Assembly (NCBI GenBank): GCA_050575255.1
Contig: JBNZDD010013726.1
Location: forward strand, 7,325,156 to 7,389,155
Length of the DNA: 64,000 bases
Direction: 5' to 3'
Source: Harriotta raleighana
Taxonomy: Eukaryota
Of the stretch, positions 9,501 to 61,849 are shown piece by piece. The translations under genes were made by a program, and so were the position numbers. Each line of letters starts with the position of its first letter. Positions within the stretch are counted from its first letter, which is position 1. Below the pieces are notes generated by a model that did not search any database, was not told the DNA's origin, and saw only the letters and a program-made list of their open reading frames with translations.

Positions 9501-12500
9501 ATATTTTTGAGCTCTTATAACCTAATAGATGATAATATTTTCCATTCCAGTCATTTTAACATTGCTAATATTATTTGTGTTTCCTTTCTTCTGCCTGTGC
9601 TGATCTCATTACCTTTTAATGCACCAATCCATTCTACTCCAAAAGTCACCCATGCCAATGATTCAAAATTGTGATTTAAATCATCCATCAGCGCAATTAG
9701 TTCCTTATCCTTTTATGTTAAACACCTCTATCAAACCACCAATCATGCTTCCTTTATCCCAACAGAAAGATATAACCTCTCTTATCTTCATCATCCTTGT
9801 GAAGCGAAACTGTATCCTCCATAGCTCTAATGTCTGTTATCGTGGCTGCCTAAAAACTTACACAATTTCCCAGCCTCAGCCTAATACGTACTATTTTTCT
9901 GGTTGTTTTGAGTGTAGCAAAAACTGCACCTGTTTATTATTGGACAGTTTCTACAGCAATTGGTTTCCATTTAGAAATGACCGAGCAGGTCAAAGCTATT
10001 AGCTATGGAGATATGTCCGCCAATAACTAAAGAGGATTTGTACTAGTCGGTGATCTCAAAACTACTTGTGAGCCTGCAGTGGGTTGATGTGAGCTTCACC
10101 CATCTGAGACCGGTAGCAGTCACACTTCTGCTTCTATTGCTGTCGAAAGGTTGTCAGTGTCAACATTGGCAGAATGGATCACTTTGGTACATTCATTTAG
10201 CTCCTGGTTTGCTGCAGGCAATGCATTTTTTTTAAACAAAATATTCTTGCATGGAAAGATCCTTGTAAATGAAACTTTTATTGACTTGACTCCTTTCTTT
10301 TTAAAAAAAACATGCTGAAATTGACAGTGATGCCCCTGCTATGAATCAAATAAACGTTGTGCCTGTGCTTATAACACCTGAGGGGCTTCAGATTCTAGCT
10401 ACCTTCCCCCACCCCAGTCTATTGCTGTCTGTCATGCTGAGTTTGTTGCTTCAATGATGGGAGTGTTGAAGATTACACTGAAAGCTGTTTGGAAACTCTT
10501 GAATTTAATTATGTGTACATAGACTAATCTGGCATAAGGCAGTATGTACTTTGGGAACAGAAGCTTGACTCCCATAGACCAACCACTGAGGCAGAAGAGA
10601 CAGCACTGATTCAAAAGAGGTAGCAAACTTCTAATAAAGCCTTGAGATTCTTCCATGCAATGCAACGTGGAAAGAACCAGCGGTGATCTAAAACCTCATT
10701 TTTGTTGGTCAGATTTAGTGATTCTCAGAGCGTTTGTAATTAAAGGGAAAGAACTACAGTTTGAAATGAGCCACCGCAATTCCTTAGTGAATGATTTAAT
10801 GGGAGACTTGCAGAGAATTTAAATAGGTACACTACATCAGAGGCCTGACACGAAGCTTTGAAAGTGCAAAATTTATGTTGGTTAATGTTTCGATATTCAT
10901 ATGCTTAGGCGTCATTACAATCAGCCTTTGTTTGTACTAAAGTTGGCAGGCCAGACCTATTACATTTGGGTAAGGGGAAATTTTAGGGTCATTTGACATT
11001 GTATTCCTCTTGATGCTCCAAGCACTCCTATAATTCTGCCAAAGCAGTATAGTGGGCTTTTCTGGTGCAGTTTGCTCCAACTTCAATTATTGTTTATCTC
11101 CAGACTGTTTGAATAGTTATAGTAGCAAGGAGGAAGTTTTTACTCCTTAATTCAGGGTCAATTTGTAGTGAACCATGGCTTTTAGCCGCACGAACAGCTG
11201 CCTCTTTTATAAGCAAGAAGGGTTCACTGGCAGTTCAGGGTAATACAATAATAATTTCACGAACAAGGAAACTTCTATTCATTGCTTTATTTTGATATGT
11301 GCTTGAAACATTTTGACATTTTGACAACTGACTCATACGGTGAGTTTTGCAATACAGCTAAGTCTGAGTTCAAGGAAAACCCAAATGATACGTGTTTAAA
11401 TCTTTTTGGTACAGAACATGTGTTTGATAGAGCAAATGACCCTCCATACATCTTCACTAAAATACAATTTAAAGTCCCATTTCTCCAAAAATGGAACAAG
11501 CAACAGATTTCTGTATTCTCTTCTGTACTCGCGCAACAAACTGAAATTAGTGGTTGACTACATCTACAGTAGTTACTGTCCTCGTGCAATAAAATCGTAA
11601 TACCTTCAAGCTGGGCATGTGATCAAAACTGGATTTTGTAGTTACAAGATCACAAGAGGTTTGAATGCCATTCGGCCCATTTCATCTCATCCTTCTGGAA
11701 TACCTGCTCTGCTCTCTTCCCATTCACAGCATCGTGCTTTTCGAATGAGTGCTGGCCTCAACCAGGCTTCCTGGTAACCTGTTCCAGTCATTAATTACCA
11801 TCCAAGCTTCTTTTTTTTAAAAAAAACTAAGTCCTCCTAGTGCTTCTGCAGAAATTTCCATTTACACTGTAAACTTATCTGGTTCTGCTGTCTTGGTGCA
11901 TTCATTCTAATACCCCACAATCTTTTTAGTTGAACTGGGGCAGCTCTAAATCTGCAAGATTTGAATTCTGACACAGCATCCATTTTACTCTTAATACTGT
12001 AGCTTAGCAGTGTTGAATTTTGTGGTGGATGTCCGTGACCGCTTATAAACCTCACCCAAATGGTACTCCATGTGTGAGGCTTGTCTGGATGTCAGCAGGT
12101 TATTCCACCCTTGTAGTGCATCACAGCTGTGCAGGATCCTGTTAACTGACATTCACACATGTGCACTTTTCCAGCAAGGTTCACTGCTAGTGATCAGGAG
12201 CAGAAATCCTGGCTTTTTTCCCCCCCATCCTGCTTAACTCACGGCAACCAAAGCCAACTAATGCTCTGCAAAGATTCATCTAACTCGGAACAGAGAGTTG
12301 AACCTGAAACCTTCCGGTTTATGTGATTTGCTAGTGTTTCAGGTGGCATTAACCCACTCGTCCATTAGAGGCAGGAATCCTCAATCTTTTTAAGGAGTTA
12401 AAAACCTTCCTGATACCTGTATCGGATCAATCAGATGTGGGGGAAAGATGTGCTTCAAGAGAGATTTGTTTCTCTCGTTTTAATTTTCTACAGCTGAATG

Positions 12501-15500
12501 TCAACAAGATTAGACATTTCCATCTTGGTTTCATATCAGCACTTTCTCACCTGAAAGCAAGGAATGCTCACTTCACCTCACAGTGTCTTCGCCCGCCCCT
12601 CCAACTACTCTTCAACCCTACATTTGGGATCGCGTGCTTTGCTTCTCCTCATCTGGGCAACTTTGCCTGCCTCTGTCACTGCCTTCATCATGAAATGAAA
12701 GGCACTGTATAAACATAACTTGTATGCACCTCCAACCTTCTGGACCTCTTGTCCAGTTCATTTTTACTCGGGCTTCATTTTGAAAAATGTTACTGGGATA
12801 GAGAATTTTCCCAAACTAAATGTCTAAATGAGTTACCAGCTGGTAATGTTCTTAGCTTTACGAAACTTGTATTATCTGCTTGTATTTGCTTTGTGAAGTT
12901 CCTTACATGCCTCGATGCCAGTGTTGTGGTTAACGGACTCTCCTGGTAATTTATATGTCTTATTGCAGGATTCTAAGGCATTGTTTGATTCCAACAGAAG
13001 AACTTTTGTGACTGAAACTCTCTCATCCACAGCAACTCTTCAAGTACTATAATCCTTCGGGATTCTGGATACTTCCTCCTGCTCCATCTCTTTATCCCAG
13101 AAGCAAAGCCACTTTAGGTCCATAATAAGCCAGAAGCTACTTTGCACTTCAAAATGTCAGTTCACAAGTTCAAAGCATGAGTCTGTGTTTTTACATTCTG
13201 AACTGACAAAGATCAGAGTGGGTCCTTTTGTTTATACTCCTTTTAACCTTCTGCCCTCATGGGAGGGGGAAAGAAAGGGCCAGATCACCTTCCACTGAAA
13301 CAAAGATTTAGATCTCAAATTGGAACGTACTACATCTGACTTTGGTGTTGAGTGACACTTCATTTCAGGTCCGCATTCTGACGTGAAGGCTCAGAAACGT
13401 GTGCAATTTAATACCAGCCTGAACAGATAAGCCAGCAAAAAAATAAAATTCTGCGCTTCATATTAGAAGAGACTTAGTAACAAAGGTAAATTCCCAAGGC
13501 CTTTTTAGTCATTGGGAACCTGGTGGCTTGATGGTGGCTGCATCGATGCCGCTTCTTTCCAGCAGTTGTGAAACAGTTAACCTTGACAACTTCTGGCCAC
13601 ATTTAAATCAGCTCGCGTTCAAATCAGTTCTTTGAAGTTAGCAACATTTTTAGTAAAAAATTCAAACTTGGAGGGAGAAGCGATTGCTGCCTGTAAATAT
13701 TACAAGACTTCATTAAAGCCTATGCAAAATGCTATGTGTGTCCCATGTGCTATGTGCCTCAGGCTGGACGTAACTCAATATTGTGTGCACTTTTTCATGC
13801 TAAACCCAATGTTCTCTTAGAGGGTTTTATTTTCAAGTGCTACATATGCAAGCTCATTTGAAATGCATGATCTAATGATGATCTAAACAATGGAAGTTTA
13901 AAGGTGAAGTTTAGGGCAGATCAGTGATAGCTTTGTGTGTGTATATTAACAACATCAGATGAGCTCTGTTGAGTTTTCCTCTTCCAAAGGCATCTTTTTT
14001 TGCTCCAGACCAAGCCAGCTCTTTGAAGATGATTTGGGAACGTGCAGAAAGCTGTGCCAAACAAGCCTGTGACATATTTTTGTTCATGTAGTGCTTAGGT
14101 TCAAAGTGCTTGCTGTCCAGCAGGAGGGTTTGATATTCATCCGGTCTAATCTGTTCTGTTGCCATAGCAATAAAATCGATTTAGGAATAATAGTGGGATG
14201 AGGATACTTGGCAATCTTGGATCTTGTACCAACAGTCATGAATTGGTAGATTTGTATCAAGAGTAAACCCCATCTCAACCAAGTAGCAGACGTTTCGCAG
14301 TGGGAAAGGAAATGAAAGGGGGAGGTATCCTGGTTCTCTTGTACTCCTTCAAGCATCAACTTCAAACTTGATGGTGGCTTGATCATGGGATTTCTGACTG
14401 TGCTCTCTGCAGAGAAATTGCAGGAGGGAATGAGCGAGAAATTGGGGGAGGGAATGAGCGAGAAAGAGCGAGAGAGCAGAAAGCATTTGTTTGCTTTTTC
14501 TTTTCGGCCAATTCAAGACTTTATTGTGTAAAAGCTTCAACGTGTTTCTAAACTGTAAATTCAACTTTGTTACAGATGATTCAATTCTATGAATTGAGAA
14601 TCCCAAATTGCCATTATTTGTAATTTAGGATTGTCTTACTGCCTCTGACTTTTTTGGATTTAAATGTAAAACTGGGATGACTGATTTATACCCCCCTGAC
14701 GGTAATTACAAAAGATAAACCGTCCAGTGTTGTGTGGTGCATTTGTATTACATCAACGCTTCTGATCCAAGCCTCAACTTGGCAGCTAATGCTGTAATGT
14801 AAATGTAATGTGATGCCATTACCTCAATATGTGCCCAGATTTGCCTAAGTAATGGGGGCCAAAGCATCAGGCTGTTTTTCTAGCCAGCACAAAATTTCCT
14901 CAAGCGTCACGGAAAGTCTGCTCACCCGAGAAAAAAAACATTAATACCTCCACATGCCTCTACATTATTGCTGCCAAACTGTAGCATTTGTGTGTGTGTA
15001 CGTTGCAAATGACTTGCCTTGAACTTTACAGGCTTTCCCACATGTACTCAATGGGTGGGACTACAGAGAATTGGAGTAAATGTATGTATCAGTGTCTGGC
15101 TGATATTGGGCTTCTGCCAAAACCAATACCCTAACAAATGGATACAAATCAAAATGTAGTCTTGCATTAGCAGGTCAGCAGGGCTGTTGTGGACTGCCTT
15201 AACACCGTTGAGATAAGAAAGCTTATGTCTATTACGGTTCTTCCTGATTGTTGTTTGGAGACCCCCACACTGGATCAGTGGGGGGGGAAATGTTTTAATG
15301 CTGCACCCGCAAGAGGAGCTCAAAAGATACCAATTGGGACCACATATGAAGTGAGACACAATGAGTCATTGGCTTTTTACCTTTTAGGATCCAGATTCCA
15401 ATCCAAAGCAGATGTGGCAAAAGTCTTATCTGGCTGTAGAGGGTGCAGAGTGTAAAGAGTTCTCTGCGGAGGGTATTTTGAGAAGTCTTAACAGTTACTG

Positions 15501-59549: not shown

Positions 59550-61778
59550 GGTGTGATTGGGGGTGGGGGGGGGTAGATCCAGGAATTCTCTGACGGTGTT
59601 AAGCGGGAGAGATGACCTGTGAGAAGCGTTAACGTGAAACCCCAGAATAAGCAAGAAATACCTTTCATTGTTTTTCGCGGATTAACTGCCGACATTATTC
59701 ACACGCTCCGCTGGTGTCTCTATTGCCTGCAAATAGATGAAGAGAGAGAGAGCTCGTTCGACTGATGACAGTCATACAAAACCTACCATGGACTTCACAT
59801 CACTTTCCCATCGCTTGGTGGAGGGGGAAGAGGGTGGGGGGGGAGGGGATGGTGTATCAATTACCCCCTCAACCACAACGTTAATTAAGTGAATGAATCC
59901 ATGAATAATCCCCCCACCCCCTCCATCTTTCTTTCCTATTCCACCTGGCCTCTTTCGCTACGCAGTTCGCATTCTCCCCCACTGCTCTAGCAGCTCAACA
60001 ATCATTGTGATCCTTTCAGTCCATCTCTATTCATACATACAGTTCCCCAATGCTATTCTCTGTGGATTCATATCACATTACAGCACAGAAATAGGCCACC
60101 AGTCGCAGCTAGTCCGCCTGCTCTGTCCCTTTACTTCACAGTTTATCCGGAATCCGCTTTCCTGCCGATCGCTTTCTCGAACATCCGGCTTCTATCCGGC
60201 TCTCCTCGTGTTAAAATGCTGATACAACACTGGCTCGGTATTTTCCTATCAGCACTACACAACTCGAAGTTCTCCAACTCGAAGTTGAGAACACGATCCC
60301 GAGATATACTGTACATCAAATATTCCCAGTGTTCTCTCCCCACAAGATCAGCTTCAGTTCGTCCTTTACAATTCACAAACACCCTAGCAGTGAGTAGAAC
60401 CTAATATGCGATCATTTGTATTGTGAGGAGCTCGAAACATTTGCCTGGGAACCTCCAGGGACCAATAATCTTTGTCCCACAGGTTTCGATTGTAAAATTA
60501 CAGACAACGAGTGATGAAAATGACTGTTTATTCATGTACACCCTGTAGAGTGGGTGTATATGAATATCCCTAGAAAAATTGGCAGCTGTGAAATGGATAT
60601 TGTGTTGGACAAAAACCTGGATCAAATGAAGTGGCTGATTCCATTCCAGCTCTTATTGTGGAGAGACTATTGCTGGGATCCCAACCCAAGTCAAAGAATG
60701 TCCCAATGCACACAGAGTAGAAATCACACATCTCTCACGCTGACTCTGCAATAACATCTCTTTCAAAATGATATCTCTCCATTACGCGTGGCCTACCTGA
60801 TCTAAGCGTAGCATCCCAATGTAGTAAGTCGTTTCACATTCAATCCCATTATAGACCCAACACTTCATTGCATTATTCACATTCAACATAGACCCCCCCT
60901 CCCACTCCCCCCCCACCAGTTATCTGTGATTTTACGCTTAAGCACAATATTATCAGAGCCACTGAACCCAAAGTGCTACAAAATGTTGGCTTTACATCCA
61001 ATTGCACTGCGAATCGTTGAGTGGAGAAGACGGATACTCACGTCTACAAACATTTCTGTTTAGAAACAGGCCATAGAAATCGCGATTTTCCGCCGTTGCT
61101 GCTTGTAATGTTTTTTAAACGAACACCCGCCTTCTCTAGATAGTCAGATGCGGCTTTTTTTAAAAAACAAAACAAGTACTCTCCAAGCGGCCACTCTTTC
61201 CAGCGTGGAAATAAAGTCGTTATTTATTAATCAATGTTATGATCATTTAGTTCTGGTCGTTTGGTTTGTTTGGGCCCCAACAGATGGGTTTGCGGCGTGG
61301 AGTCAATAACAACATTAATCTTCAGGACATCTCTCCCCATTACTGATCCCTCACAGCTACTGTAATTGAATGAAATCAGAATTCGGGTCTTAAGTTTCAT
61401 CATTAAAAAAAACACGACCTGTGCAGTATTTCTACCGAATGTCACACACCGCCTTGTCGGGGAACTAAGGGGGAACTTTGGAGTCTGAATCCAAACGCTA
61501 ATCGTTTTGATTCTGTTCACGACAGATGATTCGCATTTTCCTTTGAGTACAGCTTTAAAAGAAATATATTGTACTTGCTCCTCTCTGATTACAAGTTAGC
61601 CTAGAGGTGAGGTGGGTGACTGACCTTTTTTTTTGGCGGCGGGGGGGAGGTACATAAACGTTTACAGTAATGGATGGATGTGTGTCCAGTCGATTGTCAT
61701 TGAATGGGACTCCCCATTTTGTTGCCTCATTACAAGGCTTGTTTGCCCTCAAGGCTCGTTCCCATCCCTGGCCTGAGC

Positions 61779-61849
61779 TGACCTGAATCTGACCCAAATG
61801 TCGGACCATGACATTCCTGTGAACTTTGGATGAAACCTCGTCAAGTTCA
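61779..61849. promoter_or_regulatory. Distal RARE cluster about 6 kb upstream of CYP26A1
   Basis: TGACCT gaatc TGACCC (perfect DR5), then TGACAT tcctg TGAACT ttgga TGAAAC (chained DR5-like sites) and AGTTCA at 61844. Confidence 0.7.

Follow-up and report, generated by a model that had tools for sequence, protein, structure and literature searches.

Excess of retinoic-acid-receptor motifs around CYP26A1 in a chimaera, and a conserved element within MYOF that is a likely ortholog of a mouse Cyp26a1 enhancer

The 64-kb window analysed here, a contiguous stretch of DNA from the chimaera Harriotta raleighana, carries CYP26A1 and neighbouring MYOF exons and is genuinely enriched in DR5 motifs, the spacing read by retinoic acid receptors (RAR). 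One cluster, at 25.0-25.4 kb, lies in a MYOF intron and is conserved; it is the likely ortholog of a distal enhancer described in mouse, and we consider that it probably serves as a long-range feedback enhancer of CYP26A1 in the chimaera. We infer its orthology, activity and target there from conservation, position and one oligonucleotide match. The features are collected in Table 1.

Table 1. Coordinates of genes, motifs and conserved sequences in the 64-kb window
Feature	Position	Strand	Basis
MYOF intron, 14.9 kb	3728..18625	+	tblastn exon map, GT-AG splice sites
Perfect DR5, candidate enhancer	11221..11237	+	half-site-rich 400-bp patch, 6 half-sites
Perfect DR2, candidate	13159..13172	+	motif scan
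MYOF intron, 12.3 kb	21584..33850	+	tblastn exon map, GT-AG splice sites
Second conserved block of the 25-kb element, one half-site	24622..24740	.	77% over 120 bp to L066
Conserved non-coding element in 12.3-kb MYOF intron	25032..25435	.	alignment to L066, density
Match (18/20) to mouse RARE-1 knockout genotyping reverse primer	25057..25076	+	
Four-half-site composite: DR1 25080-25092 (+), DR2 25095-25108 (-)	25080..25108	.	
DR5 25325-25341 with adjoining half-site forming IR1	25318..25341	-	
Perfect DR5	27908..27924	-	unchanged in three other chimaera-like species
DR5 in MYOF coding exon (39628-39744)	39711..39727	-	motif scan, exon map
Last mapped MYOF coding exon	42245..42328	+	tblastn
CYP26A1 coding region; one exon in N gap	51696..55631	-	
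Promoter DR5	55923..55939	+	motif scan
Upstream DR5, 1.7 kb from ATG	57368..57384	+	motif scan
Upstream cluster: perfect DR5 61779-61795, one-mismatch DR5 at 61809 and 61820	61779..61836	-	

Results

DR5 motifs are enriched around CYP26A1

With RGKTCA half-sites, seven perfect DR5, two DR2 and one DR1 motif are present on the two strands of the window, together with a single DR9 and none with spacings of 0, 3, 4, 6, 7, 8 or 10. All nine motifs listed by eye in a first-pass annotation (six DR5, two DR2 and the DR1) were found; five of its six DR5 positions are exact, the other lies at 57368 rather than 57369, and a seventh DR5, the one in a MYOF coding exon, had been overlooked. This last site is probably incidental.

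The claimed excess also stands, with a measured expectation of 0.16-0.17 DR5 per 64 kb instead of about 0.1. Dinucleotide-shuffled versions of the window contained 0.17 DR5 on average and none of 100 reached seven, while the whole genome has 2722 in 1.10 Gb (0.158 per 64 kb, a count overdispersed by tandem repeats); the enrichment around chimaera CYP26A1 is about 40-fold. The Poisson probability of at least seven DR5 in the window is 4e-10, and of at least six 2e-8, with about 17,200 such windows genome-wide. We rejected the possibility that the motifs come from repeats: none of the nine non-coding sites overlaps a mapped repeat or tandem array. The flanks contain two DR5 in 400 kb (1.0 expected), and the two long MYOF introns three in 27 kb (0.067 expected). 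DR2 (n=2) and DR1 (n=1) are little above the number that half-site counts predict (0.25 per spacing) and are not significant by themselves; the excess over background is specific to the DR5 spacing.

Three of the DR5 motifs lie in the two longest mapped MYOF introns

MYOF exons were mapped with C. milii and marmot myoferlin as tblastn queries, giving 44 exon matches and 43 gaps, of which the two introns in Table 1, both with canonical GT-AG boundaries, are the longest. The paralogous DYSF introns are much shorter, about 0.3 kb and 0.8 kb respectively according to the DYSF exon map. Exon map and splice sites agree in placing three DR5 within these two introns, at 27.7, 30.3 and 44.4 kb from the CYP26A1 ATG (55631), as the earlier reading (28-45 kb downstream) had it. 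Between the CYP26A1 stop codon and the last mapped MYOF exon there are 9.4 kb without a perfect DR motif. A ferlin-profile search, in which five control exons scored E<=2.6e-18, detected no decayed MYOF exon in the two long introns or this gap. There is no second MYOF copy in the chimaera genome, the four other ferlin-like matches being at 43-55%.

One intronic element is conserved

One conserved non-coding element thus placed in the intron of a bystander gene was identified in the chimaera, at 25 kb. It aligns to a distant vertebrate contig, L066, with 74% identity over 418 columns (E 2e-59), and its patch of nine half-sites in 400 bp is the densest within 464 kb. L066 came from a metagenome scan for the motif pattern; the other eight of nine matches were set aside, as they showed no alignment beyond the motif. 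Half-site bases are kept in L066 in 29 of 30 cases vs 211 of 296 for other bases (P 8e-4), a count that leaves out the bases of the search pattern and compares a single distant sequence, and the half-sites therefore appear to be under purifying selection. In the DR1/DR2 composite all 29 bases are the same in L066, 24 of them belonging to the search pattern, and in the DR5 at 25325-25341 the half-sites are identical with one of five spacer bases kept.

Among closer relatives, a piece of the element in the chimaera-like run X5 has 5 differences in 338, and a piece from run X11 (24238-24791) differs from the window by 2.7%. A DNA search of 24900-25500 against the chimaera's own genome returned only the sequence itself and a 73-bp flank repeat. 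In L066, no MYOF exon was seen in the 6686 of 12224 bases searched, and Pfam, Rfam and homolog searches returned nothing; no contig among those listed for other species runs from a MYOF exon into the element.

The element probably corresponds to the mouse distal enhancer

In mouse, the distal enhancer of Cyp26a1 contains RARE1 and RARE2 and lies at mm10 chr19:37,788,057-37,792,531; it is bound by RAR/RXR and p300 and contacts Cyp26a1 in 4C, and its deletion by CRISPR reduces induction (Li et al. 2026, PMC13738024). An RAR/RXR peak of F9 cells from an independent study falls inside it (PMC4446430). Of eight mouse oligonucleotides one matches the window clearly, and the other seven have no match above chance. 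It is the primer adjoining RARE1, and it matches at 18 of 20 positions in L066 also, at the aligned place; such a match is expected by chance at about 1.6e-3 window-wide for eight oligonucleotides and at 1e-5 within the element. On the strength of this one 20-mer, 25032..25435 and the mouse enhancer are likely orthologous; the order of the oligonucleotides would make 25318..25341 the counterpart of RARE1, and the DR5 at 27908, compared by eye, is a possible counterpart of RARE2. By-eye matches of the RARE-1 and RARE-2 oligonucleotides imply opposite orientations.

Seen from CYP26A1, both elements lie downstream, in the direction of MYOF. They differ in context, the mouse enhancer being intergenic, 90-95 kb from the TSS in a CYP26A1-MYOF gap of 197.5 kb, with the Myof 3' end, by gene coordinates, about 106 kb farther on, whereas the chimaera element is inside MYOF, 30 kb from the ATG, with a gap of 9.4 kb. 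In mouse F9 cells Cyp26a1 rises by a log2 fold change of +5.6 and Myof shows -0.27, -0.58 and -0.08 at 6-24 h and +1.68 at 48 h, so that in these data Myof is not an early retinoic acid (RA) target.

Remaining intronic sites

The earlier proposal of several CYP26A1 enhancers in MYOF introns is supported for the 25-kb cluster, and it is weak for the sites at 11221, 13159 and 27908. Among the differences listed for run X5, none falls in 11075-11390 around the first site vs 20 in 11391-11587. The X11 piece around the DR2 (13055-13391) shows 3.9% divergence, compared with 5.2% overall (P 0.13); this run (share 0.08) represents a close relative, not a distant one. At 27908 there is a short invariant patch (P 0.17 for a clean motif, 0.036 for the 43-bp invariant run) and no broad conserved block in the chimaera-like species compared. 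Run X7 is nearly identical to the window and therefore carries no conservation signal.

Sites upstream of CYP26A1

The other three of the six DR5 first listed lie upstream of CYP26A1, at -0.3, -1.7 and -6.1 kb, in a region where RAREs have long been described. The promoter DR5, which precedes a TATA box by about 115 bp, fits the known R1/RARE1 in position and is presumably identical to R1 in sequence. The cluster at 61779 is likely RARE2/3/4, judging from its clustered form. The chimaera resembles the CYP26A1 promoters in which R1, R2, R3 or RARE1, RARE2/3/4 were described (PMC10879103, PMC9249609, PMC8643627) in having upstream DR5s, of which one is close to the TATA box and another belongs to a cluster, with the one-to-one assignment being tentative. 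CYP26C1 is located just outside the window.

Discussion

CYP26A1 thus likely has an enhancer on its MYOF side, the function of which has already been published for mouse (PMC13738024). Retinoic acid would bind RAR/RXR at the DR5, DR1 and DR2 motifs of the intronic element, coactivators would then be recruited, and the element would loop about 30 kb to the CYP26A1 promoter, where it and the promoter RAREs together would raise RA degradation. Binding, looping and loss of induction upon deletion are mouse results from that article.

It is hardly credible that only the upstream sites function and that the intronic motifs are due to chance. The weak conservation of each of the sites at 11221, 13159 and 27908 agrees with this, and the exon site at 39711 shows that chance DR5s happen, but the intronic DR5 count is far above expectation, and the conservation of the 25-kb element with its motif-specific constraint largely refutes chance there. 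NR2F, HNF4 and RXR homodimers read DR1, DR2 and IR repeats, so that the composite would suit several receptors, and an element inside MYOF with CYP26C1 close by might serve either of these genes. We regard such another receptor or target as improbable, since the excess is specific to DR5, mouse Myof is no early RA target, and the likely mouse ortholog is RAR/RXR-bound and required for Cyp26a1 induction (PMC13738024, PMC4446430). To a similarly small degree an assembly error might have misplaced intergenic enhancer blocks into the two MYOF introns at repeats: the assembly is fragmented (13,732 contigs), tRNA-derived repeats flank the block, and the contigs of other species listed leave gaps at 22426-23102 and 29027-29173. 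Against this, four misjoins would be required, the flanking exons are in order with canonical splice sites, and the X16 contigs cover 19873-22298 and 23102-29027 in collinear order.

The first-pass annotation had gone further and suggested that embedding in MYOF helps to explain the conserved linkage of the two genes. We consider it unlikely that RAREs within MYOF introns hold the two genes together throughout the jawed vertebrates. The intronic position and large introns in the chimaera, and a Myof-Cyp26A1 synteny extending to lamprey (PMC10879103), speak in its favour, and further elements might sit in mammalian MYOF introns; however, the only element traced is intergenic in mouse, downstream zebrafish peaks are intergenic as well (PMC8608873), and CYP26B1 and DYSF are linked without such embedding. 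In the CYP26B1-DYSF block of the same genome there are five DR5 in 200 kb vs 0.49 expected, all outside DYSF, four of them in the 96.9-kb gap, at 35-55 kb on the downstream side of the CYP26 gene that faces the ferlin gene, and none in the part of DYSF examined. Duplicated elements common to this block and the window were sought and dismissed, as no sequence was alignable. As the intronic position is not common to mouse, it is not what keeps the genes linked across vertebrates. This differs from a classic bystander block: the embedding is absent in mouse, and the linkage is present in both.

As the enhancer is intronic in the chimaera and outside Myof in mouse, its order relative to the last MYOF exons has likely been altered during vertebrate evolution. 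Of two histories, we slightly favour the one that starts from an intronic ancestor and has a single tandem duplication of the MYOF 3' region in bony vertebrates. The dead downstream copy would have lost its exons and kept the enhancers. The fuller version, in which the chimaera preserves an ancestral jawed-vertebrate state where distal RAREs in two MYOF introns locked the genes until that duplication released them, with the upstream copy staying a complete gene and the downstream copy giving the ~200-kb mammalian gap, is tentative and has less than an even chance. The lack of decayed MYOF exons in the two long introns and the gap of the chimaera is an observation against the duplication history, and the short DYSF introns and intergenic DR5s fit an intergenic ancestor.

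The zebrafish cyp26a1 locus has RARaa peaks 530-542 over 9.650-9.737 Mb, seven of them 25-61 kb downstream of the gene; three downstream peaks assigned to cyp26a1 are distal intergenic and none is in the CNE table (Lopez-Perez et al. 2021, PMC8608873). This array resembles the chimaera in having many RAR sites on both sides. Another parallel is skap1, whose intron 4 contains a Hoxb enhancer bound by RAR (PMC8608873), also a conserved RARE in an intron of an RA target's unrelated neighbour.

As far as the literature was searched, the likely conservation to cartilaginous fish is new, as is the change of position between intronic and intergenic (with a gap of 9.4 kb in chimaera vs 197 kb in mouse). 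The main text of PMC13738024 makes no mention of Myof, and its available part compares beyond mouse only human H3K27ac; the available portions of PMC9049972, PMC10218549, PMC13622096, PMC3769385 and PMC11040003 contain nothing on the element. If our reading is correct, a CRISPR-validated mouse RA-feedback enhancer dates to the base of jawed vertebrates, and its core narrows to about 400 bp, including the DR1/DR2 composite; this composite would lie outside the mouse RARE1 deletion, which may have missed it. The intronic-intergenic switch makes it possible to ask directly whether embedding in a bystander causes conserved linkage or just accompanies it, and a duplication release, if true, would make the departure of enhancers from their host gene traceable. 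The compact chimaera locus also provides a short list of elements for the human CYP26A1-MYOF gap, which contains disease signals without an assigned gene (PMC13393102, PMC5814451). Signals for glaucoma, myopia and Meniere disease map to the ~200-kb mammalian gap.

Results

All nine direct-repeat motifs listed by the first-pass annotation (RGKTCA half-sites at spacing 5, 2 or 1: DR5, DR2, DR1) are present in the sequence, one of them with its coordinate shifted by one; a further perfect DR5, the seventh, which it had overlooked, lies within a MYOF coding exon. The proposed DR5 excess was confirmed, as the window holds 7 such sites against 0.17 in shuffled sequence and a genome-wide background of 0.158 per 64 kb (Poisson P of 4e-10 for all 7, and 2e-8 for the 6 non-coding sites). 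Among the direct-repeat spacings compared in the window, enrichment is restricted to spacing 5, and it is confined to the window, with 2 DR5 in 400 kb of flanking sequence; no non-coding motif site in the window overlaps a tandem array or mapped repeat. We conclude that the direct-repeat feature around chimaera CYP26A1 is real. DR5 with one mismatch occur 10 times in the window, versus a density of 3.2 per 64 kb in flanking sequence, and a 1.3-kb stretch of the 14.9-kb MYOF intron carries four of them together with one one-mismatch DR2.

Coordinates of features in the locus (window positions unless a contig is named)
Feature	Position	Strand	Content or location
MYOF	to about 42328	+	
CYP26A1	55631 to 51696	-	
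MYOF intron, 14.9 kb	3728-18625		DR5 11221, DR2 13159
MYOF intron, 12.3 kb	21584-33850		DR1/DR2 composite 25080-25108, DR5 25325, DR5 27908
25-kb element	25032-25435		12.3-kb intron
Perfect DR5	39711		MYOF coding exon
One-mismatch motif cluster	16521-17845		14.9-kb intron
Further non-coding stretch	28471-28894		
tRNA-headed repeats	20204-20562, 22535-22877, 29680-30016, 46680-47057, 49856-50165, others		
Near-identical tandem duplicates	58840-59197, 56636-56814, 56038-56172, 43446-43694		
DR5 of the CYP26B1-DYSF gap	G000:C13521:939715-959409 (L055-L057)		contig of the same genome

In its last exon, CYP26A1 shares 95% identity with Callorhinchus milii and 82–89% with sharks, which places the window in another chimaera. 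MYOF and CYP26A1 are separated by 9.4 kb, CYP26C1 follows outside the window, and the two motif-bearing MYOF introns exceed all others of the 43 mapped gaps in length, as originally described. Upstream of CYP26A1 there are three DR5, at -0.3, -1.7 and -6.1 kb; judged by their position, they may correspond to R1 and RARE2/3/4. Retinoic acid response elements (RAREs) in the CYP26A1 promoter are known from zebrafish, mouse and human (excerpts of PMC10879103, PMC9249609 and PMC8643627).

In the 25-kb element, a conserved non-coding cluster, 5 of 338 bases are different in X5, a sequencing run with DNA of a close chimaera-like relative; the figure over the 8 listed pieces of this run is 6.1%. A search of metagenome contigs with a degenerate four-half-site composite gave 9 matches, eight of which were set aside as they did not align outside the motif. 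The remaining contig, L066, aligns to the element over 418 columns with 74% identity, and to window 24622-24740 with 77%. It retains 53 of 54 half-site bases versus 257 of 350 others; when the search-pattern stretch is excluded, the counts in this one distant sequence are 29 of 30 versus 211 of 296 (P = 8e-4). In the DR5 spacer, 1 of 5 bases is retained. Because L066 shows CpG depletion (0.27), carries none of this genome's repeats and is alignable to the window over only about 820 bases, whereas other chimaera-like runs show 91–95% identity throughout, its sequence is read as that of a distant vertebrate. Its bases 1-430, at the contig end and roughly 0.9 kb away from the conserved element, form a CpG island (GC 0.64, CpG o/e 0.88) for which no protein match was found. 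A palindrome-like GTTCA/TGAAC motif with similar short flanks, repeated in the unrelated metagenome contigs L063, L065, L067, L068 and L071, looks like a prokaryotic element.

DR5 27908 is identical in 3 of 3 runs (P = 0.17) and there is a 43-base invariant run (P = 0.036), but its conservation signal is weak, as 37 variable places fall within about 380 surrounding bases. None of the listed X5 differences lies within 11075-11390, around DR5 11221, and the signal at DR2 13159 was not significant in the comparison of chimaera-like runs. The further non-coding stretch, without a perfect direct-repeat motif, shows 3.1% differences in X5 versus 6.1% overall and is possibly another conserved element.

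In mouse, Cyp26a1 has a distal enhancer that contains two RAREs, is bound by RAR/RXR and p300 and shows a 4C contact; deletion of this enhancer lowers Cyp26a1 induction (excerpts of PMC13738024); an RAR/RXR peak in F9 cells, from an independent dataset, falls inside the deleted region (excerpts of PMC4446430). The reverse genotyping primer for mouse RARE-1 matches 18 of 20 bases at window 25057-25076, with no other window match at ≤3 mismatches (0.02 expected), and it also reaches 18 of 20 at the corresponding position of L066. It was the only clear match among eight mouse oligos scored (about 30 are listed in the relevant part of PMC13738024), the chance for eight being 1.6e-3 over the whole window and 1e-5 inside the element. 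The first 9 bases of a RARE-1 guide fall at window 25360, a position suggesting that DR5 25325 is the counterpart of mouse RARE1. Two RARE-2 oligos resemble 27938-27966 by eye, and are given little weight because their orientation is opposite.

Discussion

We consider it probable that the 25-kb element is an RAR/RXR-responsive enhancer that would loop to CYP26A1 and so strengthen retinoic acid feedback; in chimaera, MYOF would then be its passive host. In mouse, Myof shows no induction at 6–24 h.

The suggestion that RAREs embedded in MYOF introns help explain the conserved MYOF-CYP26A1 linkage fails as a general rule, since linkage is retained where embedding is lacking. The distance of the mouse enhancer is 90–95 kb to the TSS and about 106 kb to Myof, which it does not reach (mm9 ends: Cyp26a1 37,776,018, Myof 37,973,526), calculated with a build offset of 74,490 derived from where Cyp26a1 starts in the two builds and assumed constant; even with zero offset it is outside Myof. 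Zebrafish has seven RARaa peaks 25–61 kb downstream of cyp26a1, and the three downstream peaks assigned to this gene are distal intergenic and missing from the CNE table (excerpts of PMC8608873). At the paralogous CYP26B1-DYSF locus of the chimaera genome there are 5 DR5 in 200 kb versus 0.49 expected, 4 of them in the 97-kb gap. The analysed 69 kb of DYSF contain no DR5, and the equivalents of the two long MYOF introns measure about 0.3 and 0.8 kb. The four gap sites, all perfect DR5, 35–55 kb downstream of CYP26B1 with two 180 bp apart, are candidate retinoic acid enhancers of that gene.

If the 25-kb element is the counterpart of the mouse enhancer, as is likely, the enhancer is intronic in chimaera and intergenic in mouse, and its order relative to the final MYOF exons differs between the two. 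A single tandem duplication of the 3' part of MYOF could have shifted the enhancer from intron to gap, one event sufficing because the upstream gene would stay intact and the downstream exon copies would be dead immediately; the reverse direction would take two. We lean slightly towards an intronic ancestral position. An ancestor with an intergenic enhancer, which the intergenic state of the CYP26B1-DYSF paralog favours, is given somewhat less than an even chance; a search of this genome for MYOF exon remnants was negative. It is improbable that the intronic position in chimaera reflects misassembly, for which four misjoins would be required; no listed contig from another species connects the element with a MYOF exon.

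The mouse enhancer on the Myof side and the zebrafish RAR peak array are already published, and full-text searches, whose coverage excludes most subscription journals, returned no paper dealing with MYOF-intronic RAREs or with the 25-kb element in cartilaginous fish. In human, CYP26A1 and MYOF have signals for Meniere disease, glaucoma and myopia in their vicinity or in the interval between them (excerpts of PMC13393102 and PMC5814451).

The high-copy repeats of ~300 bp, with a tRNA-like head matching Rfam tRNA, are read as a putative SINE family. The tandem duplicates, some adjoining N, and long C runs close to the CYP26A1 promoter are probably assembly artefacts.
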